DNA from: a bacterium
Lineage (GTDB): Bacteria; Armatimonadota; Zipacnadia; Zipacnadales; Zipacnadaceae
Assembly: GCA_030602615.1 (NCBI GenBank)
Contig: JAUVZM010000005.1
Span: 5,094-69,093 of the forward strand
Direction: 5' to 3'
DNA length: 64,000 nt
The translations under genes were made by a program, and so were the position numbers. The notes under the pieces were generated by a model, which was not told the DNA's origin, searched no databases, and was given only the letters and a program-made list of their open reading frames with translations. Shown here one piece after another: positions 4,220 through 63,152 of this stretch (position 1 is the stretch's first letter; each line of letters starts with the position of its first letter).

Positions 4220-5110
4220 ATGGACAGTTTGCCAGCCGACCAAACCAGGACGTTGCCAAGCCCGCAGGCCGCCGACCAGGCTCCTTCTCCCATCCAGCTA
4301 ATCACAGTAGGTGCAGCGCTGCTGCTGGCCTACGGGCATTATATCCTGTGGATGGTCGAACGGTGGTGGGAAAGCCCCTACTACGGGCACGGCTTTCTGA
4401 TCCCCATTATCAGCGGTTACCTGATCTGGCGGGTGCGCGAGCGGCTGTGGCAGCTACCGCGCGAAGATTTCAATTGGGGAATAGTCATTGTGGCCGGCTC
4501 ACTGGTGGTGCATCTTGCTGCCAGCTTTGCCGACGTCCATTTTCCCTCGGGCTTTGCTCTGGTTGGAACAATCTTTGGGCTAGTGGTATGGCTGGGAGGA
4601 CGGGCATGGGGACAGATGCTGATCTTTCCGGTCGGCTTCCTGGCATTTATGGTGCCCCTGGGTCGAATCCTGGTCGAGCAGGTCGCCGGGCCTCTGCAAC
4701 TACTCTCCGCCCAACTGGGCGGCCAGGCCGTAGCAATGATTGGCGGGATAGTCAATATTGAAGGCACGCTCATCCGCACGCCGATCTACACCTTCGAGGT
4801 AGCCATTCCCTGCAGCGGACTAAAATCAACCATTGCTATGACTGCGCTGGCTGCCCTGTTTGCCTATCTGGTGGTGGCGCCGCGGTGGAAGAAGCTGGTG
4901 TTGTTCGTGTGCGCTTTTCCCGTAGCCTTGCTGGCCAACGCTGCCCGCATCTTCGTCACTGTGATTTTAGGTACAACTGTGGGGCCGGCTGTTGCTGAAG
5001 GCTTTTTTCACAGCGTTTCGGGTATTATTGTTTTTCTATTCGGCCTGACCGGTCTGTTCGTCGTGGGGAGAACCCTGGGATGTCTGCAACTGCGCGAAGA
5101 CATCTGGTAG
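4220..5110 (+). CDS. exosortase family protein (XrtA-like transpeptidase)
   Basis: The N-terminus WWESPYYGHGFLIP matches the exosortase start. The catalytic Cys motif AIPCSGLKS and Arg motif NAARIFVTV are present. There are about 8 transmembrane helices. EpsI overlaps directly downstream. Confidence 0.75.
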   Translation: MDSLPADQTRTLPSPQAADQAPSPIQLITVGAALLLAYGHYILWMVERWWESPYYGHGFLIPIISGYLIWRVRERLWQLPREDFNWGIVIVAGSLVVHLAASFADVHFPSGFALVGTIFGLVVWLGGRAWGQMLIFPVGFLAFMVPLGRILVEQVAGPLQLLSAQLGGQAVAMIGGIVNIEGTLIRTPIYTFEVAIPCSGLKSTIAMTALAALFAYLVVAPRWKKLVLFVCAFPVALLANAARIFVTVILGTTVGPAVAEGFFHSVSGIIVFLFGLTGLFVVGRTLGCLQLREDIW

Positions 5111-19715: not shown

Positions 19716-20556
19716 CTACTTTTGCCTTGGCGATCTGATGCTGACTTGCCCAGTCCAACAGATGCTCGGCGCACTCGTCAGGCACCTCAACCGCACCGAT
19801 CTCCACTGGTATCGGCCCCTCTGGCCCATGCGAGTCGCTGCCTCCGGTGATCAGCAGATCATTCTCCTGGGCCATCACGATATAACGACGGGTCTGCGCC
19901 GGGCTGTGAATAATATGATACGCCTCTATGCCCTGCAAGCCGCAGTCTATCAAGCTGTCAACATGTTGCTCAGCGCCATCCAGTACCGGGTGGGCCAGCA
20001 CGGGTATCCCGCCAGCGCTAATTACCAACTCTACAGCCTCGCCGGGAGCAAGCTGGTAGCGCTCCACGTAAGCTGAGCCGCCCCGGCGCAGATACCGAGC
20101 AAAGGCCTGCCGGGAATCAGCCACGTGGCCCTCTCTGGCTAATCGCCGGGCGATATGGGGCCGGCCAATGCTGTCAGGGCCAGCCTCTTCCAGCAGCTTT
20201 TCAAAGTCAATGACAATCCCCAGCTTCTCCAGCTCATCAGCAATCTGGCGTGCCCGCTGGTGGCGGGCGTCGCGAATCGCCTGCAACTTCTCCCGCAATC
20301 CGACGTGCTGTAGGTCAATGAAGTAGCCCAGGATATGTACGTCCCGGCTGTCTACCGTGGTACTTATCTCAACGGCGGGCAATACCTGCAATTCAGTGTC
20401 AGCAGCCGCCTGCTGCGCGGGCACAACCCCTGATATGCTATCATGGTCACTAATGGCAATCGCTGTCAGTTGCTTATCCAGGGCCACTTGCACTATCTGC
20501 TGCGGCGTCAGCGTGCCATCGGAAAAAGTTGAATGAATGTGTAAGTCAATTGCCAT
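19687..20556 (-). CDS. PHP-domain phosphoesterase (TrpH/YciV-like)
   Basis: MAIDLHIHSTFSDG...AISDHD...HP are PHP metal-binding motifs. The chosen start is ATG at 20556, and the ORF-track N-terminal extension is judged unlikely. It overlaps the helicase stop by 11 nt. Confidence 0.75.
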   Translation of the reverse strand: MAIDLHIHSTFSDGTLTPQQIVQVALDKQLTAIAISDHDSISGVVPAQQAAADTELQVLPAVEISTTVDSRDVHILGYFIDLQHVGLREKLQAIRDARHQRARQIADELEKLGIVIDFEKLLEEAGPDSIGRPHIARRLAREGHVADSRQAFARYLRRGGSAYVERYQLAPGEAVELVISAGGIPVLAHPVLDGAEQHVDSLIDCGLQGIEAYHIIHSPAQTRRYIVMAQENDLLITGGSDSHGPEGPIPVEIGAVEVPDECAEHLLDWASQHQIAKAKVGEADGNSSD

Positions 20557-22876
20557 TCTGCGGTTTATTTCCCGAAGTGGCCGGCTCAGTCCTTCCTGTT
20601 GCCCACAACTGAGCCAGCAGTGCTGCGCCCGTCTTGTCCAACGGTTGATTGTCATCGCCGCAACTGGGCGACTGCACGCAGCCCGGACAGCCGGCTTCAC
20701 ACGAGCAGTTTGTTATCCGTTCATAGACCGCACCCAACACTTCCTCGGCCCGGTAGTAGGCCTCCTCGCAGATACCCACCCCCCCCGGATATCCGTCATA
20801 GATGAAAACTCCCCCGCCGTCCAGTGCTTTGTGATAAAAATACGAAACCCCCCCAATATCGTGGGCCTCACACAGCGCAAACAAGGGTAGCAGCGCCACG
20901 AGCGCGTGCTCCAGAGCGTGCAGGCTACCCATGGGGTGGCACTTGTGCGCGGCCAGCATCTGCGCCGCCGCCTCGCTGAGGGTCAGCCATACTCCTACTG
21001 TCTCGTAGTCCTGCGCCGGTAAATTCAGCTTTTCGCTTCCACATTGCTGGCCGCTTTCCCGGTTGAACTTGCGATACCCCACGACCTGGTTGTGGACATT
21101 GACCTCGCCGAGGCCTATCTGGCCGCAGCCAGCCAGCTCTCGCCTGTCATAAGCCTCAATGACATCCACGTCCGACATCTCCAGAGTCTGAGTGTAATAT
21201 TCAACATCAGTCGGCTCCACGGTGATGCGGTACTCTTCTATATCCAGGTCAGTAACCAGGTAGTCCTCTCCCTGGTGCAGGTAGACCGCGCCGGGATAGG
21301 TTATCCAGTAGACCGAATGTTCGTCAATCGTGCCCAGCAGCTCATCACAACTGGCATCAATAATCTCAAACTCGCCACCGGCACTGCTGCGGATATTGAC
21401 CTCGGCCGGTGGATAGATATCTACATCGCCGGACCAGTGCCAGCGGCGGCGCTTGCGCAGATAGTTGTGCTTCTCCAATGTCTGCAGAATTGCAGGCATC
21501 TGAGGGCCGAAGAAATCCTCGTCATCTTCAGCCAGCGACAACTCGTAAGCTGCGCACAGCAGATGCTGTCCCAGAATGAAGCGGTTATCGGGATTGATCA
21601 ACACTCGCTCCTGAGCAGCGTCCAGCAGATACTCGGGATGCTCAATGACATACTGGTCAATACCGCCGGGCAGCGCCACCAGCACGGCAAGCGAATCATG
21701 CTGCCCCCGGCCAGCCCGCCCGACCTGTTGCCAGGCCGAGGAGATACTGCCCGGATAACCGGTCATCACCACCGCGTCCAAGCCACCGATGTCCACGCCT
21801 AGCTCCAGGGCACTGGTAGCCGCCACCGCCAGCAAGTCACCGGAAAAGAGTTGCTGCTCGATCTGGCGCCGCTGCTCAGGTAAGTACCCTCCCCGATAAG
21901 CCATCAGGCGCTCGCTGAGCCTCTCATCGCCAGCCAGCTCGCGCATGTACTGGAGAATAAGCTCGGCATGCTGGCGGGCCTGGGTGAAGGTGAGCGTGCG
22001 AATGCCGCGGCCGGCCAGCGCCACGGTTAGCTTAGCAGCCTCCACACTGCCGCTGCGCCGCCGACCTGAGTCAGGTTCGAGCAGCGGCGGATTCCAGAAG
22101 ACGAAAAAACGCCGTCCCCGCGCCGAGGTGTCTTCGCTGATCACCTCAAAATCTGCCCCCACCAGCCGTCGGCAGTGCTCGCCGGGATTGCCCACAGTCG
22201 CCGACGAGCAGATGAACTGCGGCTCTGCACCGTGGTATTGGGCAATCCGCCGCAGTCGGCGCAGCACATTGGCCGTGTGCGAGCCGAACACGCCCCGGTA
22301 GGTATGCACCTCATCGAGCACGACATACTTAAGGTGCTCAAAGAAGTCGGCCCACGACTGATGATACGGGCAGACGGCCATATGCAGCATATCGGGGTTG
22401 GTGAGAATGACTTGCGAATACTGGCGGATGCGCCGGCGCTGGCTCTGGGGGGTGTCGCCGTCGTAGGTGTTAGCGGTAAACACCTCCCCGGCGCCAAAAT
22501 CGCTCAGCTTGCCCAGTTGATCCTGCGCCAGCGCCTTGGTCGGATAGACCAGGATTGCTCGAGTGGTTGGGTCTTCGTATATTGCCTGGGCCAGTGGCAC
22601 TGTGTAACACAGTGTCTTTCCGCTGGCCGTACCCGCGGCAATGACCACATTTTTGCCGGCAAATACCTGCTCGATGGCCCGGACCTGGTGACGATAGAGC
22701 CTATCCAGGCCCAGATTATCCAGAATAGTCTCCACCTGCGGGCTTAGTTGTACATCCAGTTCATCGTAACGCGCCGGCTGCGGGGGAATCACCTGAAGAT
22801 GCTGGATCTGGTCCTGGTAATCTGCACCTGTGGTCAGCTCATCCAGGAATGCCTCGATGGGAGACTGCTCGCTCAC
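20546..22876 (-). CDS. DEAH-box helicase with a C-terminal DUF1998 zinc-finger domain (MrfA/YprA-like)
   Basis: Walker A (AAGTASGKT), DEVH box (VVLDEVHTY) and helicase C motifs are present. The C-terminal CSCEAGCPGCVQSPSCG four-Cys motif is the DUF1998 hallmark. Confidence 0.75.
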   Translation of the reverse strand: MSEQSPIEAFLDELTTGADYQDQIQHLQVIPPQPARYDELDVQLSPQVETILDNLGLDRLYRHQVRAIEQVFAGKNVVIAAGTASGKTLCYTVPLAQAIYEDPTTRAILVYPTKALAQDQLGKLSDFGAGEVFTANTYDGDTPQSQRRRIRQYSQVILTNPDMLHMAVCPYHQSWADFFEHLKYVVLDEVHTYRGVFGSHTANVLRRLRRIAQYHGAEPQFICSSATVGNPGEHCRRLVGADFEVISEDTSARGRRFFVFWNPPLLEPDSGRRRSGSVEAAKLTVALAGRGIRTLTFTQARQHAELILQYMRELAGDERLSERLMAYRGGYLPEQRRQIEQQLFSGDLLAVAATSALELGVDIGGLDAVVMTGYPGSISSAWQQVGRAGRGQHDSLAVLVALPGGIDQYVIEHPEYLLDAAQERVLINPDNRFILGQHLLCAAYELSLAEDDEDFFGPQMPAILQTLEKHNYLRKRRRWHWSGDVDIYPPAEVNIRSSAGGEFEIIDASCDELLGTIDEHSVYWITYPGAVYLHQGEDYLVTDLDIEEYRITVEPTDVEYYTQTLEMSDVDVIEAYDRRELAGCGQIGLGEVNVHNQVVGYRKFNRESGQQCGSEKLNLPAQDYETVGVWLTLSEAAAQMLAAHKCHPMGSLHALEHALVALLPLFALCEAHDIGGVSYFYHKALDGGGVFIYDGYPGGVGICEEAYYRAEEVLGAVYERITNCSCEAGCPGCVQSPSCGDDNQPLDKTGAALLAQLWATGRTEPATSGNKPQNGN

Positions 22877-41930: not shown

Positions 41931-42734
41931 ATGAAATTTGGGGTAATCCACTACAACGCACCGGGCGAGACACTTGCTGAGTTCTTGGACTGGGCAGCAG
42001 CCACAGGTTTCCAGTATGTTGAGCTTACTAAGGATGATCTGTGGCCGGAAGGATCGGAAAACCCCCACGCCGAGGCCGAGAAGGTCCGCGATATGCTGGA
42101 GCAGCGCGGCCTGAAGGCTTCCGCAGTGGCGGCCCACAACGACTTCGTGGTGCTGGAGGCTGACGAAGTCGCCCAGCAGATGGAGCGACTGGAGGTCATC
42201 TGCGAACTGGCCCAGATCGCGGGCACCGATGTCCTGCGCACCGAAGGCGGGGCGCCCAAGGAGGAAGTCCCCGAGGAGAGGTGGGCCGAGGCCATCACCA
42301 ACTGCTGTCGGCAGGCGCTTCAGTTCATCGAGCCGATGGAGATGAGGCTAGCCATAGACAATCATGGAGTGGTGAGCAACGATATTCCGCTGCTGCTGGA
42401 AGTCATCGAGTCGGTCAACTCGCCGCTGGTCGGCAGTAATCTGGATACTATGAACGTGCGCTGGTACGGCTGGAGCGTGGCAGAATGCGACGAGTTCTAC
42501 CAGCAGTTGGCTCCCCACGTCTTCCACATCCACATGAAAGACGGCACCGGCAGCCGTGAAAACTACCAGGGGGCAGCCCTCGGCGACGGAGAAATCCATG
42601 TGGACTATGTCGTTGAGCTGCTCCAAGAGGCGGGCTATGACGGGGTGTGGTGCGCTGAGTATGAGGGTCCGGAGGTTGCCGAGGGCGTCGGCTATCGCAA
42701 GTGCCTGGAGTGGATGCAGCAGCATATAGGCTGA
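41931..42734 (+). CDS. sugar phosphate isomerase/epimerase (xylose isomerase-like TIM barrel)
   Basis: AP-endonuclease 2 / TIM-barrel family conservation is present, with E/H/D metal ligands. Confidence 0.7.
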   Translation: MKFGVIHYNAPGETLAEFLDWAAATGFQYVELTKDDLWPEGSENPHAEAEKVRDMLEQRGLKASAVAAHNDFVVLEADEVAQQMERLEVICELAQIAGTDVLRTEGGAPKEEVPEERWAEAITNCCRQALQFIEPMEMRLAIDNHGVVSNDIPLLLEVIESVNSPLVGSNLDTMNVRWYGWSVAECDEFYQQLAPHVFHIHMKDGTGSRENYQGAALGDGEIHVDYVVELLQEAGYDGVWCAEYEGPEVAEGVGYRKCLEWMQQHIG

Positions 42735-43804: not shown

Positions 43805-43948
43805 CCAAGTCCGTTGACAGCCTCCTGGTAGTCTGTTAGCATATTAGGAGTCTCTCTCAGGGTAGGATAAGCTGGCAGATGGCTGGGAGCAATCCGCTTC
43901 CACTCTTCTCCGAAACACCTTTGATCTCTACGCAGAGGCCGACTATCC

Positions 43949-46900
43949 GTGGCTGATGATACCATCCGCATTCGGGGCGCCGCCCAACACAATTTGCGTA
44001 AGGTTGACCTCGATCTGCCGAAGAACCGCCTTATTGTTTTCACTGGCATCAGCGGCTCGGGCAAGTCATCCCTGGCCTTTGATACCTTGTTTGCCGAGGG
44101 GCAACGGCTGTATGTGGAGTCGCTTTCCACCTATGCCCGGCAGTTTCTCCAGGAGATGCCCCGCCCGCAGGTGGATAGCATCGAGGGGCTGGCCCCGGCT
44201 GTAGCCATTGACCAGGCCAAACGCAGCCATAATCCTCGCTCGACAGTAGCCACTATCACCGAGATATACGATCACCTGCGGGTGCTGTTCGCCGCCATCG
44301 GCACGCTGCATTGCCCTAAGTGTGGGCGCGAAGTAGGCGCCCAAACTCGGGAAAGTGTGATACAGCGTATCGTCGGCCTGGCCAGCGAGAGCACCATGCA
44401 GATTCTGGCACCGCTGGAGCGTGGGCGCAAGGGCCAGTTCAAGGAACTCTTCGCCGACCTGCGGCAAGCAGGCTACGCTCATGCCCGCGTGGATGGCCGG
44501 TTCATCCACCTTACTGAACCCCCGGAACTGGACCGCTACCGCCGTCATGACGTTGAGGTGGTGGTTGACCGGCTGGCGGCTGGTGCACACTCCCCCAGCC
44601 GCATAGGCGAGGCCATCGACATTGCCTTTGATCTGGGTGAGGGTAATCTCATCGCAGTGCCCGAAGACGGTGAGGATATCCTGTTTAGCCGCAATTTCGC
44701 CTGCCCCGACTGTCAGATCAGCATCCCCGAGCCTACCCACACCTCGTTTTCGTTCAACAGCCCCCGCGGTATGTGCCCGACCTGCGAGGGCCTCGGTGAG
44801 GCCCGCACCATTGACCCGGAACTGCTGGTCGCTCATCCCGACAGGTCGCTGGCCTCCGGGGCGATACCGCTACTGAGGTCGCTGCGCAGCGCCCGCCGCC
44901 GCCACTGGTATCAGGGCGTCGCCGACCATTACGGATTCACCCTCGACACGCCCTGGAAGGAGCTAACTGAGAAGCAACGCCACGCCTTACTGTATGGTTC
45001 CGGCGAGGAACTGATTGAGTTTTACTATCGCCATGCCCGCCACGGCTGGGAGTGGCGCCACGCTGATGTATGGGAGGGGATAATTCCCGGGCTGACGCAC
45101 CGGTACAAACGGGCTGAGTCCCGCCTGCTGCGCCAGCGTTTCGAGCAGGTCATCCGCCAGCAGCCGTGCCCCGACTGCCACGGTCAGCGGCTGCGCCCCG
45201 AGAGCCTGGCAGTGACCATCGGAGGGAAGTCAATCGCCGCCATTACCGGCCTCACTGTAGATCAGGCCGGCGAGTTCTTTGCCAAGCTAACACTCAACGA
45301 AAACGACGCACTCATAGCCGAAGACGCTCTTAAGGAGATCACGGAGCGGCTGTCGTTTCTGAAAGAGGTGGGTCTGCACTACCTGACGCTGGATCGCACT
45401 GCACCGACCCTATCCAGCGGCGAAGCCCAGCGCATCCGCCTGGCCGGACAGGTGGGCAGCGGCCTGACTGATTGCCTCTATGTCCTGGATGAGCCCAGCA
45501 TCGGCCTGCACTACCGTGACCAGGGGCGCCTGCTGGAGGCACTCAAACGACTACGGGATCTGGATAACACGGTGATCGTCGCTGAGCACGACGAGCAGAC
45601 CATCACCAATGCTGACTATGTTGTGGACTTTGGTCCGGGAGCAGGTGCCCAGGGCGGCCAGATTGTCAGCGTCGGCACTGTAACAGAAATAAAGAACGAT
45701 TTAGACTCGCTGACCGGCGACTATCTGGCCGGACGGCGCAGCATCCCGATTCCCAGTCAGCGTCGTGACGGCAACGGGGCCAGCCTGACACTGTGCGGAG
45801 CCCAGCACAATAACCTGAAGGATATAGATGTGAAATTCCCGCTGGGCCGGTTTGTTTGCATCACCGGCGTGTCAGGCTCAGGCAAGAGTTCGCTGATTGC
45901 CGACACCCTCCATCCGATTCTGGCCGCCGAGCTACACAGCGCCGAGACTGAGCCGGGGGAGTTTGATCATCTCGAAGGTATTGAGAACGTGCGTAAGGTG
46001 GTGATGATTGACCAGTCACCGATCGGCCGCACCCCGCGAAGCTGCCCGGCCACCTACACCAAAGTCTTCGACGATATCCGCCGGCTGTACGCGCAACTGC
46101 CTGCCTCGCGGGAACGCGGCTATACGCCTGGCCGATTCAGCTTCAACGTTAAGGAGGGCCGCTGCCCCCACTGCGACGGCTACGGCGCCGTCAAGCTACA
46201 ATCGGATTTCCTGGCTGACGTGTGGGTGCAATGTGAAGAGTGTCATGGACAGCGGTTCGACCGGGAAACGCTAACCATTCAGTACAAGGGCGCCGGCATC
46301 GCTGAGGTGCTGGATATGGAGGTCAGCCGGGCGCTGGAGCACTTCGCTAATGTTCCCAAAATCAAGCGGGTGCTGCAGGTCCTGGCCGATGTCGGGCTGG
46401 GCTACATCAAGCTGGGACAGTCGGCAACTACCCTCTCCGGCGGCGAGGCCCAGCGAGTCAAGCTGGCCCGCGAGCTGGCCCGTCCCCAGCAGGGCGACTG
46501 CCTGTATCTGCTTGATGAACCTACCACCGGCCTGCACTTTGAGGATGTCCGCCATCTGCTGGCCCTGCTGGGACGGATGGTGGACGGCGGTAATACTGTA
46601 ATCATCATCGAGCACCATCCTGACATCATCAAGACAGCCGATTATGTAATTGATCTGGGGCCGGAGGGTGGCGAGGAAGGCGGCGAGGTGGTCGCGACAG
46701 GTACCCCGGAGCAGGTCGCCAAATGCCGCCGCTCGCACACCGGTCAACTGCTCGACCAGATACTCAACGGTGCCGACGGGAGCCAGCCAATCCCACGAGT
46801 TGGCACTCAGCGGCGCAGTAGCCAGCCCAAATGTGAGGCCATCCAAGTGTGGGGCGCCCGCGAGCATAATCTCAAGAATATCAGCGCCAGGGTCCCCCGC

Positions 46901-49900
46901 CGGCAGATGGTCGTCTTCTCGGGTGTATCAGGCTCGGGCAAGACCTCCCTGGCAGTAGACACCATCTACGCCGAAGGTCAGCGGCGCTTTGTCGAATCGC
47001 TATCTTCCTATGCCCGCCAATTTGTCAGCGAGATGCCCAAGCCCAAGGTAGACCGGGTCCGGGGCCTATCGCCGGCGGTAGCTATTGACCCGCGCAACAC
47101 GGTCCAGACGCCGCGCTCAACTGTCGGCACAATGACCGAGATATACGACTACCTGCGGGTGCTGTACGCCCGGCTGGGTGTTCCCCACTGCCCGGAGTGC
47201 GGCAGCAACCTGGGTGCAGCCTCCGTTGATGATATTGTTGACCGCCTGCTGAGCAAGCTGCACCGCCGCGAGATTATGATCCTGGCGCCTCTCCAGCCTA
47301 AAGCCACCGAAGAATACCAGGAACTGCTCGAACGGCTACAGCGGCAGGGCTGGGTGCGCATTCGCCTGGACGGACAAATCCAGCGGCTGCCGTTTGCCTC
47401 TGCGCCGGACCGGCGCAGCCACCACAAACTTGAACTGGTGGTAGACCGCCTGCGCGTGGCAGAAAAGCACAGGTCGCGCCTCGCTGAAGCCGTGGAGACC
47501 GCCCTTGCCGTCGGAGGGGGGCAAGTAATAGCAGCACCTACGGCTGAGACGGCCGCACCAGACGAAGAGCTGACTTTTTCCAGCGAGCTTTCCTGCCCTA
47601 ACTGCGGCACCGCCTACCAGGAATTAGAGCCGCGCAGCTATTCGTTCAACCATGCCCAGGGCTGGTGCCCGGTTTGCGAAGGGCTCGGCACTCAACCAGG
47701 TGTAGAACCGGCGGCGCTGGTGCCGGACGAGAGCAAGTCAATCCGCGAGGGCGCCGTCAGTCTGTGGGGGCCATTGGAACGGGACAGCCTGCTGTATAAG
47801 CTGCTTGCCGCGGTCGCGGAAGCCGCCGGGTTCAGTCTCAATCAGCCCTTTGCCGAGTTGACGTTCGCCCAGCGGAATCTTGTCTTTTCCGGCGGTGATG
47901 AGCAATTCACCGTTGACGGGATGACTGTGCGATTCAAGGGATTAGTGGAAGGTATCCGGTCGGCAGTGCAGTTGGGCGATAAGATGCGGCGCAGATTTGC
48001 CCGCGCCTGGACCGATGTGCCCTGCCACGCCTGCGGTGGAGGACGGCTGCGTCCCGAGCCCGCCGCCACTCGCTTTCGTACTCACACACTGCCTGAGCTG
48101 TGCCGCTACTCACTGGAAGAGGCACTCGGCTTTTTCGAGCAACTCGACCTATCATCCACTGAAGAGCAGCGCGCCGGAGAGATTCCTGAAGAGGTGCTCA
48201 GCCGGCTGCGGCTGCTGGTGGATATCGGCCTCGATTATCTCACATTGGATCGGCCAGCAGCGTCACTTTCCGGCGGGGAGGCCCAGCGTATCAAGCTGGC
48301 CAGCCAGCTCCGATCCGGACTCACCGGCGTACTTTATGTGCTCGACGAGCCGACTGTCGGCGTTCATCCCCGCGACAATGAGCGGATGCTGGCGGCGCTG
48401 GATTCGCTGCGGGATTTGGGCAACAGCCTCATCATCGTCGAGCACGACCCCCAGACCATCAACCGGGCTGACTATGTTATGGACTTCGGACCGGGCGCCG
48501 GCCGCGAGGGTGGCGAGATAATCGCCACTGGCACCCAACGAGGCATCAGGCGGCGCAACTCGCCGACCGGCCACTACCTGGCCGGCAAGCTGGCTGTCCC
48601 TGTTCCTCAACCCCGGCGGTGGCCCAATGACGGCAACAATAGTGAACTGAAGATTCTGGGCGCGGCCCATCATAATCTCAAAGATGTTGATGTAACCGTC
48701 CCGCTGGGCTGCCTGGTTTGCGTCACCGGCCCGTCTGGCTCCGGCAAAAGCTCGCTTATCGAGGAGATCCTTTATCCGGAGCTGGCCTGGCGGCTGCAGG
48801 GCAAAGCGACTACGCCAGGGCGGCATCGGGACATCATCGGCAGCGAAGCTGTTGACAGGGTGATAAATATCGACCAGTCGCCGATCGGCCAGTCGCCGCG
48901 CTCCAACGCCGCTACTTACACCGGCATCTTTGACCTGATCCGCGAGTTCTATGCCAGCCTGCCGGAGGCGCGCATGCGCGGCTATACCTCCGGCTGGTTT
49001 AGCTTTAACAATGCGGGAGGGCGTTGCGAACACTGCCAGGGGATGGGGACAATCCACGTGGAGATGCACTTTCTGCCCGATGTCTGGGTGACCTGCGAGG
49101 AGTGTCAGGGGCGGCGGTACAAGCCGGAGATACTGGAGATCGAATACAAACACCGCAATATCTCTGATATTCTAGAAACAACTGCCGCTGAAGCATTGGA
49201 GCTGTTTGCTGACTTTCCCAGGTTGCACCGGATGCTTAGCGTAATGTGCCAGGTCGGGCTGGGCTACCTTCCGCTGGGGCAAGCTGCGCCCACCCTGTCG
49301 GGAGGCGAGGCCCAGCGGGTCAAGCTGGTCCGCGAACTGGCCCGGCCCCGCCGCGGTCATACTATCTATCTGCTGGATGAGCCGACCACTGGCCTGCATC
49401 CCGCCGACATCATCAAGCTGCTATGCGTGCTAAATCGGTTGGTCGAACAGGGCAATACAATGGTGGTCATTGAGCACAACCTTGACGTCATAAAGACTGC
49501 TGACTACGTCATTGACCTGGGGTCGGGAGGTGGCGACCGGGGCGGGGAGGTGTGCGCTGCCGGTACTCCCGAGCAAGTTGCCCAAAGCGATTCACCTACT
49601 GCTATTTACCTGAAGAAGGCGCTGGCAGCAAGTCCCACGGTCGGTCGCCAGGAGCTAACCGCACCGCTGCTGGAGACCAAACCCGGCGGCAAGGTGGCGG
49701 CAATGCGCTCGGAGGTCCAGGCGCCCTGGCAGCGCGACCCGGCAAAGTGGCATCAGGAGCAGCGCACAACCGCCGACGGCGAGCAGCGCGCCTGGGATGT
49801 CGAAGCGCTCACTGTGCTCGAGGAAGCTATCAGCCAGCTAGCCGACCCACCCGACGGAGACTGGGAGCATCCCCGCTACATCAAGTATCAGCTCGATGGC

Positions 49901-50215
49901 TCCAGCGACTGGTTCGTGCGGGCGCGCACCGACAAGAAATGGTACCTGGACCTGCAACTGCGCACCGAAAAGGGACTTCTTGACGAAGTGCAACTGGCCC
50001 AGCGCCTTGCTCTGCCCACCTGGAACGAGATTGAAGACCTGCCCAAGTACGGCGAGGGCGCTCGCGTGCGGGTACACACCCGTGCTGCTGACTACGACAG
50101 GATTAGCCTGCAGATCTTCTCGGCCGATGACCTGCGTCAGCCACAGTTTGCCAGCTTTCTGGCAACTTGCTACCAGGGCTACCGGCGCATGATCGGATGG
50201 AAGGAGGGCGGCTGA
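43949..50215 (+). CDS. uvrA: tandem-fused double UvrA (two complete UvrA modules in one 2088-aa chain) with a ~190-aa uncharacterised C-terminal domain
   Basis: Module 1 (~aa 1-955) and module 2 (~aa 960-1890) each carry two ABC ATPase domains: Walker A GISGSGKSS / GVSGSGKSS and GVSGSGKTS / GPSGSGKSS, plus LSGGEAQR signatures. Each also has zinc-finger CxxC pairs and a UvrB-binding-like region (ILAPL...VVVDR). The frame is continuous with no internal stop. The ~190-aa C-terminal tail has no recognised family. Confidence 0.8.
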   Translation: MADDTIRIRGAAQHNLRKVDLDLPKNRLIVFTGISGSGKSSLAFDTLFAEGQRLYVESLSTYARQFLQEMPRPQVDSIEGLAPAVAIDQAKRSHNPRSTVATITEIYDHLRVLFAAIGTLHCPKCGREVGAQTRESVIQRIVGLASESTMQILAPLERGRKGQFKELFADLRQAGYAHARVDGRFIHLTEPPELDRYRRHDVEVVVDRLAAGAHSPSRIGEAIDIAFDLGEGNLIAVPEDGEDILFSRNFACPDCQISIPEPTHTSFSFNSPRGMCPTCEGLGEARTIDPELLVAHPDRSLASGAIPLLRSLRSARRRHWYQGVADHYGFTLDTPWKELTEKQRHALLYGSGEELIEFYYRHARHGWEWRHADVWEGIIPGLTHRYKRAESRLLRQRFEQVIRQQPCPDCHGQRLRPESLAVTIGGKSIAAITGLTVDQAGEFFAKLTLNENDALIAEDALKEITERLSFLKEVGLHYLTLDRTAPTLSSGEAQRIRLAGQVGSGLTDCLYVLDEPSIGLHYRDQGRLLEALKRLRDLDNTVIVAEHDEQTITNADYVVDFGPGAGAQGGQIVSVGTVTEIKNDLDSLTGDYLAGRRSIPIPSQRRDGNGASLTLCGAQHNNLKDIDVKFPLGRFVCITGVSGSGKSSLIADTLHPILAAELHSAETEPGEFDHLEGIENVRKVVMIDQSPIGRTPRSCPATYTKVFDDIRRLYAQLPASRERGYTPGRFSFNVKEGRCPHCDGYGAVKLQSDFLADVWVQCEECHGQRFDRETLTIQYKGAGIAEVLDMEVSRALEHFANVPKIKRVLQVLADVGLGYIKLGQSATTLSGGEAQRVKLARELARPQQGDCLYLLDEPTTGLHFEDVRHLLALLGRMVDGGNTVIIIEHHPDIIKTADYVIDLGPEGGEEGGEVVATGTPEQVAKCRRSHTGQLLDQILNGADGSQPIPRVGTQRRSSQPKCEAIQVWGAREHNLKNISARVPRRQMVVFSGVSGSGKTSLAVDTIYAEGQRRFVESLSSYARQFVSEMPKPKVDRVRGLSPAVAIDPRNTVQTPRSTVGTMTEIYDYLRVLYARLGVPHCPECGSNLGAASVDDIVDRLLSKLHRREIMILAPLQPKATEEYQELLERLQRQGWVRIRLDGQIQRLPFASAPDRRSHHKLELVVDRLRVAEKHRSRLAEAVETALAVGGGQVIAAPTAETAAPDEELTFSSELSCPNCGTAYQELEPRSYSFNHAQGWCPVCEGLGTQPGVEPAALVPDESKSIREGAVSLWGPLERDSLLYKLLAAVAEAAGFSLNQPFAELTFAQRNLVFSGGDEQFTVDGMTVRFKGLVEGIRSAVQLGDKMRRRFARAWTDVPCHACGGGRLRPEPAATRFRTHTLPELCRYSLEEALGFFEQLDLSSTEEQRAGEIPEEVLSRLRLLVDIGLDYLTLDRPAASLSGGEAQRIKLASQLRSGLTGVLYVLDEPTVGVHPRDNERMLAALDSLRDLGNSLIIVEHDPQTINRADYVMDFGPGAGREGGEIIATGTQRGIRRRNSPTGHYLAGKLAVPVPQPRRWPNDGNNSELKILGAAHHNLKDVDVTVPLGCLVCVTGPSGSGKSSLIEEILYPELAWRLQGKATTPGRHRDIIGSEAVDRVINIDQSPIGQSPRSNAATYTGIFDLIREFYASLPEARMRGYTSGWFSFNNAGGRCEHCQGMGTIHVEMHFLPDVWVTCEECQGRRYKPEILEIEYKHRNISDILETTAAEALELFADFPRLHRMLSVMCQVGLGYLPLGQAAPTLSGGEAQRVKLVRELARPRRGHTIYLLDEPTTGLHPADIIKLLCVLNRLVEQGNTMVVIEHNLDVIKTADYVIDLGSGGGDRGGEVCAAGTPEQVAQSDSPTAIYLKKALAASPTVGRQELTAPLLETKPGGKVAAMRSEVQAPWQRDPAKWHQEQRTTADGEQRAWDVEALTVLEEAISQLADPPDGDWEHPRYIKYQLDGSSDWFVRARTDKKWYLDLQLRTEKGLLDEVQLAQRLALPTWNEIEDLPKYGEGARVRVHTRAADYDRISLQIFSADDLRQPQFASFLATCYQGYRRMIGWKEGG

Positions 50216-50847
50216 TGCAGTTTCTCTCCCGGCTACTCTTTCAGATCACCGCCGACTGCCCACGGGTCTCCGATGCCGTGAATATGGCACCGGAAGACTG
50301 GCCGGACGGGCTACTGCCACCACTGGGTGAACTGGACAGCGAGCAACTATTTGCGCGCGTGTACGTAAGTTGGAATGAGAGCGGGCTCTACATAGCCAGT
50401 AACATTCCCCGTGGCGGTCGGCTGGTCGGCAATCGCCAGCGGCCCGACTCGGGGGACTGCCTGCAACTGTGGATTGACACTAGCCCTGAAGAAGGTCGGC
50501 GCCGGGCTGACAGGCACTGCTACCACTTCATTATCCTGCCCCAGGTGCCCGGCGGCGACAAGCCCGTGGCGTGGCAGCAGCATATCCGCCGTGCTCGCGG
50601 CCGCCCGCCGCTGTGCGATCCCCAGCAGATACAGGCCATGGTCAAGCAAGAAGAGGAAGCCTATCAGATGCTGGTGGGCCTGCCCACCACGGAGTGTCTC
50701 GATTTCACGCCCCAGGCCGGGACGGAGGTCGGCTTCAACTATCTGCTCAACGATACCAGCCTCGGTCGGCAGTTGTGGAGTTGTCCTCACCACGCAGATT
50801 ACGCAAAAGACCCCAGTTGCTGGGGCCGGTTGCGCCTGGTTGAGTAA
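50215..50847 (+). CDS. CBM9-like / DOMON-like domain protein, translationally coupled to the double UvrA (no signal peptide)
   Basis: The ATG overlaps the UvrA stop (TGATG) and has an AAGGAGGG RBS. The motifs ARVYVSWNESGLYIASNI...DCLQLWIDT and FNYLLND resemble the CBM9-like family. Confidence 0.45.
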   Translation: MQFLSRLLFQITADCPRVSDAVNMAPEDWPDGLLPPLGELDSEQLFARVYVSWNESGLYIASNIPRGGRLVGNRQRPDSGDCLQLWIDTSPEEGRRRADRHCYHFIILPQVPGGDKPVAWQQHIRRARGRPPLCDPQQIQAMVKQEEEAYQMLVGLPTTECLDFTPQAGTEVGFNYLLNDTSLGRQLWSCPHHADYAKDPSCWGRLRLVE

Positions 50848-59704: not shown

Positions 59705-61606
59705 CTATTTGCTGACGTAGGCGACGTCCACACTGCGGCACAGCTTGCCCGCAGCCTGCACGATCGCCTCAGTATCTATGCCCACATCGGCGCGCAGGCG
59801 CTCGACATCCCCGAAGGTAATAAATTCATCGGGTATCCCCAGGCGAGCCAGTCCTACATCCTCCAAGCCGCAGTCATTGAGCAACTCGGCTACCCCCGAG
59901 CCGAATCCGCCCGCTCTAGCATTGTCTTCTACTGTTATAATTGCCCCAATTTCTTGGGCAAGGCTGATAATTAAATCTTCATCCAGCGGCTTGACAAAAC
60001 GAGCATCAACAACAGTAGCATCAATGCCCTGCTTACTGAGGACTTCCGCTGCCTCCAGAGCCGCCGAAACACAATCGCCCACGGCAACTACTGCTATATC
60101 ATTCCCCTCGCGGCGCACTTTGGCCTTCCCCGCAGGCAACGGCTCCAGCGGCACCTGCCAATCGGCCCCAGGCCCGCAGCCACGGGGATAGCGCAGCGCA
60201 GCCGGACTGTCGAGCGTCAGGGCTGTCGCCAGCATACGGCGCAGCTCCGCTTTGTCCGACGGGGCCATCACCGTCATATTAGGGATATGGCGCAGATAGC
60301 TCAAATCGAAAAGGCCGTGGTGGGTCGGGCCATCCGCACCTACGAGGCCAGCCCGGTCTACCGCAAAGATCACGGGAAGATTCTGCAGGGCCACATCGTG
60401 AATGATCTGGTCATAGCTGCGCTGCAAGAAGGTAGAATATATGGTCACAATCGGCCTCATGCCCGCGGCCGCCAGTCCCGCCGCATAGGTGACGGCGTGT
60501 TCTTCTGCCATGCCCACATCGAAGCAGCGGCCTGGGAAGAGCTTCTTGAACTGGTCCAGCCCGGTTCCGTCGAGCATGGCCGCTGAGATAGCCACAATTC
60601 GCTCGTCGTCTTCGGCCAACTCGCAGACCGTCTGACCTAACACCTCACTGAAAGTAGGCTGCTGGCGCGAGGAAACGGTCTCGCCATTTTCCGGTAGAAA
60701 TGGACTGGTACCGTGGAAGCGCCGCGGATTATCTTCCGCCGGCTCATAGCCCCGGCCTTTTTGCGTCAGCAGATGAACCAGGACTGGTCCCTTAAGGCGC
60801 ACAGCATGCTTAAACAAACTACTCATATGAGCTATATTGTGGCCATCAATGGGACCCAAATAAGTGAAGCCAAACTGCTCGAAGAGCATCCCCGGCACGA
60901 CAAGTTGCTTGATCCCCAGCTTGATTCGGTCCAAAGCGTGGACCATATCCTCGCCCATCGGAATATGCCGCAGCAGGCGCAGAGCATCTTCGCGCGCCCG
61001 CCGGCCAGCCGGGTGTAGCGTCGCCCGCAGCGTGGCTAGATAGCCGGACATCGCCCCAACATTGTGACTGATGCTCATTTCATTATCATTTAGCACAACC
61101 AGCAGATCGCGCTGCTGCTCGCCGGCTTGATTGAGCGCCTCCAGAGCCAGACCACCGGTAAGAGCACCGTCGCCGATAACTGCGACAATGGTCTCATCCT
61201 CACCACGCAGGTCGCGGGCGGTGGCGAAGCCCAGGGCCGCAGAGATGGACGTACTGCCATGACCGGCCCCGAACGGATCGTGCGGACTCTCCTGGCGGCT
61301 GGTAAAGCCGGAAAGCCCTCCATACTGACGCAGATTAGCAAACTCTTTCTGGCGGTCGGTCAGCAGTTTGTGGGTATAACACTGATGTCCGACGTCCCAG
61401 ATAATCTTATCGGCAGGCGAGTTAAGCTCGCGGTGCAGGGCAATGGTCAGCTCCACTGTCCCCAGGTTGGGAGCCAGATGCCCGCCGGTCCGAGCGGTAG
61501 TCTCGATGATCCGCTCGCGGATTTCTCCAGCCAGAGTGTGCAACTGACTTAGCGACAGCGATTTCAGGTCAGCCGGCGATTGTATATCGTCCAAAAGCTC
61601 ACTCAT
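59705..61606 (-). CDS. dxs: 1-deoxy-D-xylulose-5-phosphate synthase
   Basis: The TPP-binding GDG motif, transketolase-like domains and full-length DXS conservation are present. Confidence 0.9.
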   Translation of the reverse strand: MSELLDDIQSPADLKSLSLSQLHTLAGEIRERIIETTARTGGHLAPNLGTVELTIALHRELNSPADKIIWDVGHQCYTHKLLTDRQKEFANLRQYGGLSGFTSRQESPHDPFGAGHGSTSISAALGFATARDLRGEDETIVAVIGDGALTGGLALEALNQAGEQQRDLLVVLNDNEMSISHNVGAMSGYLATLRATLHPAGRRAREDALRLLRHIPMGEDMVHALDRIKLGIKQLVVPGMLFEQFGFTYLGPIDGHNIAHMSSLFKHAVRLKGPVLVHLLTQKGRGYEPAEDNPRRFHGTSPFLPENGETVSSRQQPTFSEVLGQTVCELAEDDERIVAISAAMLDGTGLDQFKKLFPGRCFDVGMAEEHAVTYAAGLAAAGMRPIVTIYSTFLQRSYDQIIHDVALQNLPVIFAVDRAGLVGADGPTHHGLFDLSYLRHIPNMTVMAPSDKAELRRMLATALTLDSPAALRYPRGCGPGADWQVPLEPLPAGKAKVRREGNDIAVVAVGDCVSAALEAAEVLSKQGIDATVVDARFVKPLDEDLIISLAQEIGAIITVEDNARAGGFGSGVAELLNDCGLEDVGLARLGIPDEFITFGDVERLRADVGIDTEAIVQAAGKLCRSVDVAYVSK

Positions 61607-61866: not shown

Positions 61867-63075
61867 TTAGTTGGCGCTGACCTTGGTAACATCAGCGAAT
61901 ATGTCCCCGTCGGTTACCGTCACCCGCACCGGCTCACTTCGCTGCACTGCCGCGACCGACTTGACCACAGCCCCATCGCGTCCTCGCTGGCAGATGGCGT
62001 AGCCCCGCTCCAATACCGCTGTGGGGCTCAGCGCCGTCAGGGCCGTGCCTGCCTTCTCCAGCCGACGGTCATGCTCAGAAACCAGGTCATCGAGCTCCCT
62101 ACTCAGTAGAACAATTCCCTCATCGAGCCGCTGCTGCCAGGGCTCGAGCATTATCTGGGGCTGACGCATTGTCGGGCGGTCGGCGACGGCAGCGAGCCGG
62201 TCGCTAGCTCGTTGCAGCCGGCTCAGCACGCCGCCTCGCAGCCGCTTGCCCGCGACCACCAGATTATCAAGAAGTTCTCGCTGATCGGGCACCACCATCT
62301 CGGCTGCCTCCGAGGGCGTGGCGGCGCGGGCGTCAGCAACATAGTCAGCGATGGTAAAATCTGTCTCGTGACCGACAGCGCTGATCACGGGAATCGGGCA
62401 GGCAAAAATAGCTCGGGCCACTGCTTCTTCGTTGAACGCCCACAGATCTTCCAGCGACCCTCCACCACGCCCGACAATGATCACATCCAGTTCCTCATGG
62501 CGGCCGGCCGCCTGCAGGGACTGCACGATGCTGGGAGCGGCTGCCTCTCCCTGGACTACTGTAGGAAACTGCACAATCTTGGCCCGCGGATAGCGGCGGG
62601 TCATTATGCGAATCATATCCTGGACGGCCGCCCCGGTTGGCGAGGTGCATATCCCAACAGCTCGCGGGAAGAGCGGCAACGGACGTTTGCGGGCGGGCTC
62701 AAACAGACCTTCCGCCTCCAGCCTCGCCTTGAGTTCTTCCAGACGCGCTGCCAGTTCCCCAGCGCCGTCAGGTCGCATAAACCGCACAATTAGCTGGTAG
62801 CGCCCGGCCCGCTCATAGACTGTGACATTGCCGCGCGCCACTACCTGCATGCCCTCTTCGGGGGCAAAATCCAGGCTCTGGGCGGCGCGACGAAAACAGA
62901 CACAGCTAAGCTGGCTATCCTCATCTTTCAGTGAGAAGTACAGATGGCCGGAGCGGTGGCTGGTGAAGTTGGATATCTCGCCACGTACCACCATCTGCTG
63001 GAGCACTTCGTCGCGATCCAGCAACTGCTTGACGTACGCGGTCACCTCAGAGACACTAAGGATAGCTTCTTGCAT
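61867..63075 (-). CDS. xseA: exodeoxyribonuclease VII large subunit
   Basis: An N-terminal OB-fold (LSVSEVTAYVKQLL...) is followed by the catalytic domain. The start is taken at ATG 63075, with 63090 as an alternative. Confidence 0.85.
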   Translation of the reverse strand: MQEAILSVSEVTAYVKQLLDRDEVLQQMVVRGEISNFTSHRSGHLYFSLKDEDSQLSCVCFRRAAQSLDFAPEEGMQVVARGNVTVYERAGRYQLIVRFMRPDGAGELAARLEELKARLEAEGLFEPARKRPLPLFPRAVGICTSPTGAAVQDMIRIMTRRYPRAKIVQFPTVVQGEAAAPSIVQSLQAAGRHEELDVIIVGRGGGSLEDLWAFNEEAVARAIFACPIPVISAVGHETDFTIADYVADARAATPSEAAEMVVPDQRELLDNLVVAGKRLRGGVLSRLQRASDRLAAVADRPTMRQPQIMLEPWQQRLDEGIVLLSRELDDLVSEHDRRLEKAGTALTALSPTAVLERGYAICQRGRDGAVVKSVAAVQRSEPVRVTVTDGDIFADVTKVSAN

Positions 63076-63152
63076 GTTAGAAGAATGCATCCTCAGACTA
63101 TTTACACCCACTCTGTGCCGGGTGGCCCATCTCTGTTCTGCCCACCGGGCAA

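Follow-up and report, generated by a model that had tools for sequence, protein, structure and literature searches.

A double-length UvrA with a C-terminal domain of no assigned family and a coupled CBM9-like gene in a Zipacnadaceae genome

The fused uvrA gene and its two UvrA modules

The DNA analyzed here is a stretch of 64,000 nucleotides (the window) from a bacterium of the Zipacnadaceae (Armatimonadota), corresponding to positions 5,094 to 69,093 of contig JAUVZM010000005.1 in assembly GCA_030602615.1. It contains a single reading frame that encodes two UvrA modules one after the other, followed by a further domain and, overlapping the stop codon, by a gene for a small CBM9-like protein. 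The first-pass annotation of this DNA described the two UvrA modules, but the non-UvrA C terminus of about 175 residues and the coupled downstream gene were overlooked. The fused gene consists of the following parts.

43949..50215, plus strand: fused double uvrA gene, 2088 codons and a stop, GTG start
43949..46783, plus strand: N-terminal complete class I UvrA module, residues 1–945 (NF001503, Pfam, motifs, PDB)
46769..46840, plus strand: inter-module linker GADGSQPIPRVGTQRRSSQPKCEA, residues ~941–964, the gap between the two UvrA alignments
46841..49618, plus strand: C-terminal complete class I UvrA module, residues ~965–1890 (NF001503, Pfam, motifs)
49685..50212, plus strand: C-terminal domain of ~175 residues (1913–2088), without family assignment

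The translation of 43949..50215 contains no internal stop. At the N terminus the UvrA model is aligned from residue 3 onward, so that the GTG start is credible. Two stretches of the fused protein are matched in Pfam by both UvrA_inter (PF17760, the UvrB-interaction domain) and UvrA_DNA-bind (PF17755, the insertion domain), and two stretches are likewise matched in NCBIfam by the UvrA equivalogs NF001503 and TIGR00630. When the halves are scored separately against NF001503, for which the cutoff is 1147 bits, the N half (residues 1–960) reaches 1325.7 bits over model positions 3–942 of 943, and the C half (residues 961–1900) reaches 1192.5 bits over positions 4–941. The N module comprises nucleotide-binding domain I (NBD-I), a UvrB-binding domain (residues 132–236), an insertion or DNA-binding domain (residues 289–400), and NBD-II. 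The solved class I UvrA structures 9gxk and 2r6f match residues 2–940, and 3zqj and 3pih also align end to end on the N half. Compared with each other by BLASTP, the two halves are 47% identical over 931 residues.

The motifs required for four NBDs are all present. The four Walker A sequences read GISGSGKS, GVSGSGKS, GVSGSGKT, and GPSGSGKS, and there are four Walker B motifs, four signature motifs, and four H-loops. The sole deviation among the signature motifs is LSSGE in NBD-I of the N half, the other three being LSGGE. Twelve CxxC pairs, six per half, fall in columns aligned with those of E. coli UvrA and correspond to three zinc modules in each half. On the combined grounds of family cutoff, motifs, zinc modules, and domains, both halves classify as class I UvrA (NF001503/TIGR00630). 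The claim that one frame holds two complete UvrA modules, and that each of them has both ABC domains as well as zinc modules and a UvrB-binding domain, is therefore borne out, and domain parsing finds neither half to lack ABC or zinc modules.

The natural reading of two such modules in one frame is a covalent pseudo-dimer. Each half carries the full domain and motif set of the canonical class I enzyme and can be aligned over its whole length with the solved structures (2r6f, 3pih, 3zqj, and 9gxk), but canonical UvrA is a homodimer of one chain of ~940 residues, whereas here two modules with 47% identity share one chain. The canonical enzyme also lacks the linker of ~24 residues, the C-terminal domain, and the translationally coupled partner found here.

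A sequencing error at the junction could create a fused frame of this kind from two adjacent or collapsed uvrA genes. No stop or frameshift lies at the module junction (nucleotides ~46769–46840), in agreement with the first-pass annotation, and the same frame is intact at two other loci. One (L002) is on a 254-kb contig of a metagenome-assembled genome (MAG), where the uninterrupted open reading frame (ORF) has 93% amino acid identity and the DNA is ~90% identical and syntenic over more than 20 kb. The other (L001), in a 'Candidatus Zipacnadia' MAG, is also uninterrupted and has 71% amino acid identity. A protein 100% identical to the fused UvrA is present in NCBI (P0001), members of its 90% cluster are found on other contigs of 11, 79, and 255 kb, and uninterrupted frames of 1728–2449 residues occur in more than 100 independent clusters from different projects. 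At the DNA level the halves share short stretches only, with 60–74% identity and no near-identical sequence, and they are too different for an assembler to have confused them. Misassembly was rejected on the independent, partly syntenic contigs together with the low DNA identity between the halves, and we give an assembly or annotation artifact practically no weight.

Spread and ancestry of the fused proteins

The 120 best database clusters at 90% identity for the fused protein served as the comparison set. All 120 are double-length UvrAs of 1728–2449 residues with two UvrA units each, and their source names are plainly 'excinuclease ABC subunit UvrA'. The labeled organisms belong to the Armatimonadota, Gemmatimonadota, Candidatus Poribacteria, Planctomycetes/Planctomycetota, candidate division WS1, and Zipacnadales. 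The labels of the close relatives assign the window to the Armatimonadota. Tandem UvrA fusions had been called rare in the first-pass annotation. This did not hold up: the best 120 clusters are all double-length and come from several phyla, and a dedicated NCBIfam model (NF001885) exists. Judging from these sequences, the fused architecture is widespread, annotated as a matter of routine, and apparently ancient. Searches of the open-access full-text literature turned up no discussion of natural fused UvrAs. As many database entries are annotated plainly as UvrA, the covalent UvrA dimer is not in itself a discovery.

Because NCBIfam holds NF001885 (PRK00635, 1809 positions, 'excinuclease ABC subunit A'), double-length UvrA is a known and curated architecture. 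The proteins of this model, which we take to be the Chlamydia-type UvrA of ~1786 residues, are single chains of about twice the UvrA length, and the fused protein matches the model in two stretches. Its score of 1349.3 bits is far below the cutoff of 3054, however, and membership in this curated double-length equivalog was rejected. The model is also too short to include the C-terminal domain of the fused protein. Both halves of the fused protein match the first half of NF001885 best (positions ~5–929); the second half of the model has to be a different, more divergent module. By its scores, the fused protein belongs to another fused lineage than NF001885.

Neighbor-joining trees were calculated on 916 well-occupied columns from the 120 proteins split into halves, E. 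coli UvrA, two other single UvrAs, and three class II-like proteins from Planococcus. The N halves (120 of 120) form one clade and the C halves (120 of 120) another, and each clade was recovered in 100 of 100 bootstraps of a 76-sequence subsample. The N and C halves group together, to the exclusion of the single UvrAs, in 93 of 100 bootstraps. When the halves are placed against class I and class II proteins, as the first-pass annotation had proposed, the two half-clades are thus distinct, and the class II sequences from Planococcus fall outside both. The separate clades are most simply read as one old tandem duplication and fusion common to many lineages, with later divergence of the halves, the single class I UvrAs available as outgroups being only three. 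Four Planococcus loci (L005–L008) encode UvrA-like proteins of ~820 residues, of the short class II-like type, that are 41–42% identical to the query.

The C halves differ somewhat more among themselves than the N halves do, with mean corrected distances of 0.62 and 0.54, respectively, and they lie farther from E. coli UvrA. In a subset of relatives the C half is without its insertion domain (query positions ~285–404 missing), which is retained in the window protein. This loss was observed in P0046, P0048, P0056, P0064, P0071, P0074, P0079, P0081, P0087, P0096–P0098, P0103, P0109, and P0113. These proteins have ~1800–1990 residues and are naturally asymmetric pseudo-dimers.

The greater divergence of the C halves and the loss of their insertion domain in some relatives, which indicates that the halves are not functionally equivalent everywhere, would fit an arrangement in which each half pairs with a half of another molecule, through domain swapping or in a dimer of pseudo-dimers with four UvrA units, or in which one half is mainly a regulatory or structural scaffold. 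In both halves, however, the ATPase sites (four in all) have conserved catalytic motifs and every zinc module has conserved ligands, in the window protein as well as across the 120 relatives. This conservation points to selection on all four sites, so that neither half would be a degenerate scaffold. The linker likewise speaks against these arrangements. It is basic (isoelectric point (pI) of 9.5), and although its sequence is not conserved across the relatives, its length of ~24 residues is. We regard both arrangements as improbable and favor the intramolecular pseudo-dimer.

The C-terminal tail domain and the coupled CBM9-like gene

Residues ~1913–2088 have no sequence match in Pfam, NCBIfam, or the PDB. 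When 25 tail sequences were searched against Pfam with E values of up to 10 admitted, there were zero hits, PF04237 included. The tail is nevertheless present in 58 of the 120 fused UvrAs. An exhaustive HMMER search with the tail profile of 1.84 billion representatives (50% clustering) retrieved 466 proteins at E ≤ 1e-3, and it is despite these 466 representatives that the domain has no Pfam or NCBIfam model. A word-indexed protein search with the same profile returned 3 fragments only; it was uninformative and is superseded by the HMMER result. Among the 150 of the 466 that were listed and examined, the tail follows the C terminus of a UvrA wherever the upstream sequence is sufficient and interpretable; the remainder are short fragments.

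Two proteins have the tail after an unrelated N-terminal region, which resembles an ABC-transporter membrane domain in one and SurA in the other (P0197 and P0302). Both are probably chimeric contigs or mis-joined gene calls, and these non-UvrA contexts were set aside. The tail also occurs in tandem, with two copies in proteins of 2240–2340 residues and about three in the protein of 2449 residues (P0105). Tandem tails were noted in P0082, P0084, P0089, P0102, P0105, P0111, and P0117–P0120, and in many fragments. A frequent form has one full copy and a second that covers only profile positions ~5–105.

The tail is rich in tryptophan, and its invariant residues include Pro-14, Trp-15, Asp-18, Trp-22, and His-23, which form the motif PWxxDxxxWH, as well as Thr-82, Arg-127, and Asp-138. 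A confident AlphaFold2 model based on the 25-sequence alignment (predicted local distance difference test 91.5, predicted template modeling score 0.85) is an α+β structure with a six-stranded sheet. Its best fold matches are YjbR-family structures, and the predicted fold resembles that of YjbR/DUF419 and the 'double wing' of T4 MotA. The tail may thus be described as a UvrA-tethered domain with a predicted double-wing-like fold.

This likeness is confined to the fold. No sequence or profile relationship was found between the tail and either MmcQ/YjbR (PF04237/DUF419) or the MotA C-terminal domains, and membership of the tail in the YjbR family by sequence was rejected, there being no Pfam hit and an hhalign probability of 0.2% against a YjbR alignment of enterobacterial sequences only. 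Compared with these domains, the tail is ~60 residues longer, it is acidic in the window protein (pI 5.3, with some homologs basic), and it is attached to UvrA in every interpretable case rather than free-standing. In E. coli K-12 (L009, NC_000913.3 4270658–4273871), yjbR (PF04237) and uvrA are convergent, with 35 bp between the end of yjbR and the 3' end of uvrA. This adjacency may be a coincidence with the YjbR-like fold of the tail and, as the genes are convergent, was not used as evidence.

The second gene follows the tail directly, and its putative ribosome-binding site lies inside the end of uvrA.

50215..50847, plus strand: CBM9-like gene, 210 residues, its ATG sharing a base with the uvrA stop (TGATG)
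50199..50208, plus strand: Shine-Dalgarno-like GAAGGAGGG within the 3' end of uvrA, 7 nucleotides before the next ATG, read from the sequence

The ORF is listed as 50167..50847, and its likeliest start is the ATG at 50215, whose A also belongs to the uvrA stop codon. The TGATG overlap, combined with the putative Shine-Dalgarno element GAAGGAGGG, has the form of a classic translational-coupling arrangement.

In Pfam, CBM9_1 (PF06452) matches the 210-residue product with 15.8 bits (E = 0.014), below the gathering cutoff of 23.4. A profile made from nine homologs, on the other hand, matches the CBM9 of Thermotoga maritima xylanase 10A (1i82) with E = 1.8e-9 over ~75 residues. One homolog (at locus L016) has a precomputed and unmarked CBM9_1 hit, and the CBM9_1 hits range from weak to clear depending on the homolog. 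Despite the weak Pfam score, the profile match and the hit of this homolog therefore make the protein a related, distant member of CBM9. In contrast to T. maritima Xyn10A CBM9-2, the protein stands alone with ~210 residues, without an attached glycoside hydrolase or an obvious signal peptide, and is encoded next to a DNA-repair gene to which it is coupled; it is CBM9-like by sequence only.

Among 13 loci examined, the CBM9-like gene lies 3' of the double uvrA in nine. Homologs with 34–90% identity are directly 3' of the fused uvrA at L001, L002, L010, L011, L012, L013, and L018. At L016, where the UvrA is without a tail, the homolog lies one gene further downstream. At L014, L015, L017, and L019 the gene was not found within 4 kb. 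The remaining neighbors vary among the loci that share the fused uvrA and the CBM9-like gene. When the 80 closest relatives of the CBM9-like protein were looked up on metagenome contigs, UvrA or the tail was found directly upstream on the same strand in 29 of them. These linked loci are concentrated in the closest relatives, where they make up ~24 of the 27 best loci whose upstream sequence is long enough, and more distant CBM9-like proteins are mostly unlinked to UvrA. The fused uvrA and the CBM9-like gene are a genuine conserved gene pair.

Proposed function and genomic setting

The fused gene probably encodes a bona fide UvrA damage sensor of nucleotide excision repair in the form of a covalent pseudo-dimer, with two lineage-specific accessories. 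The protein has kept all four ATPase sites intact, along with all six zinc modules and both the UvrB-binding and the insertion domain of each half, and the genes around uvrA are housekeeping genes. By analogy with known UvrA, the halves would pack together like the canonical UvrA2 dimer and bind two UvrB molecules through the two UvrB-binding domains. The protein would scan DNA, use ATP for testing lesions, and pass the site on to UvrB, and UvrC would then make the incision. Fusion would abolish concentration-dependent dimerization and fix a 1:1 stoichiometry, and it may have allowed the halves to diverge to 47% identity, giving a built-in heterodimer. The tail and the CBM9-like protein might provide the sensor with a further contact to nucleic acid or a ligand, or with a docking site for a partner, although this is a guess that we hold with low confidence.

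Several points weigh against this proposal. The intramolecular pairing of the halves is inferred from known UvrA. The link between the tail and YjbR is at fold level, with no Foldseek match of the tail model below E = 0.02 and the low hhalign probability given above, and the acidic character of the tail disfavors simple DNA binding. Four of the 13 loci, among them 2 of the 10 that bear a tail, do not have the CBM9-like partner, and no link of this partner to DNA repair is known. Finally, the window covers 64 kb of the genome, and neither uvrB nor uvrC is found among its ORFs of at least 500 residues.

That no uvrB or other uvrA is visible in the window was already stated in the first-pass annotation, and among these ORFs there is indeed no second uvrA either. 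The fused gene could be a specialized paralog outside nucleotide excision repair, one that makes the cell tolerant of drugs, toxins, or adducts or that removes ligands bound to DNA as class II Ecm16, DrrC, and UvrA2 do, while a canonical uvrA is located elsewhere in the genome, beyond the 64 kb in view. The fused uvrA shares no operon with uvrB or uvrC, and the non-UvrA tail and the conserved partner of a ligand-binding type suggest some specialization. Yet it is common for uvrA to lie apart from uvrB and uvrC, as in E. coli, where its neighbors are ssb and yjbR, and the separation seen here is normal.

The domain content of the halves bears more directly on this alternative. What defines the class II UvrA proteins, the resistance type, is that they have lost the UvrB-binding domain (PMC3167621); PMC9328131 also gives it as lacking in class II. 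The class II paralogs (Deinococcus radiodurans UvrA2 2vf7, Ecm16 7sh1, and DrrC) share the ABC-ATPase core and the zinc modules with the fused protein, and PDB matches to class II structures score 615 and 492 bits, but the UvrB-binding domain that they lack is retained in both halves here, and the Planococcus class II sequences are outside both half-clades. A reading as a resistance paralog is disfavored because both halves keep this domain, and a class II resistance paralog was rejected on domain content. Both halves pass the cutoff of the housekeeping equivalog NF001503, the family is broad and looks vertically inherited, the neighbors are ordinary metabolic genes, and biosynthetic or resistance genes are absent among the genes of the window nearby. 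The hint in the first-pass annotation at drug or toxin resistance is therefore not sustained, and we think a specialized paralog unlikely; a UvrA sensor acting in excision repair is the reading that we retain.

A bolder version of the excision-repair reading, which we put forward tentatively and consider doubtful, is that the tail-bearing fused UvrA and its coupled CBM9-like protein form an undescribed accessory module of excision repair. The double-wing-type domain and the sugar- or ligand-binding β-sandwich might give extra specificity, for example for sugar-modified or bulky modified DNA, or might tether the sensor to a cellular structure. Separately, evolution might have divided the work of the four ATPase sites and two UvrB-binding domains in the fused family, which would make it a natural and obligate UvrA 'heterodimer'.

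New at this locus are two elements that curated family libraries do not contain, the C-terminal domain tethered to UvrA, which has no name, and the CBM9-like gene coupled to uvrA. As a pair they make a concrete candidate, open to testing, for an accessory factor in the nucleotide excision repair of bacteria from poorly studied phyla. The fused family is in addition a ready-made asymmetric UvrA in which each ATP site or UvrB-binding domain can be mutated singly, whereas mutation of a single site in homodimeric UvrA needs engineered constructs.

A putative promoter lies in the gap of 144 nucleotides 5' of uvrA.

43814..43842, plus strand: sigma-70-like promoter candidate, TTGACA-17-TAGCAT with TG (consensus scan, 10 of 12 matches; a pattern match only)

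Upstream of uvrA the window encodes a ClC channel, a xylose-isomerase-like TIM-barrel protein, and a PfkB kinase. Downstream, on the opposite strand, are an alcohol dehydrogenase-like protein and subunits of a 2-oxoacid:ferredoxin oxidoreductase. The TIM-barrel protein (41931–42734, plus strand) belongs to the AP_endonuc_2/xylose-isomerase-like type and is encoded two genes upstream of uvrA, beside the PfkB sugar kinase. The AP_endonuc_2 family includes endonuclease IV, but a sugar enzyme is the likelier identity of this copy. L016 has a similar gene near its fused uvrA.

Farther away, at 20546–22876 on the minus strand, is a gene for a DEAD-box helicase of 775 residues with an HRQ1 winged-helix domain and an MrfA zinc-binding (MZB) domain. 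It is presumably an MrfA/Hrq1-like repair helicase, of the kind tied in B. subtilis to UvrABC-independent mitomycin repair. The large subunit of exonuclease VII (XseA; 61867–63111, minus strand) and DXP synthase (59705–61606, minus strand) are encoded near the end of the window and are ordinary housekeeping genes.

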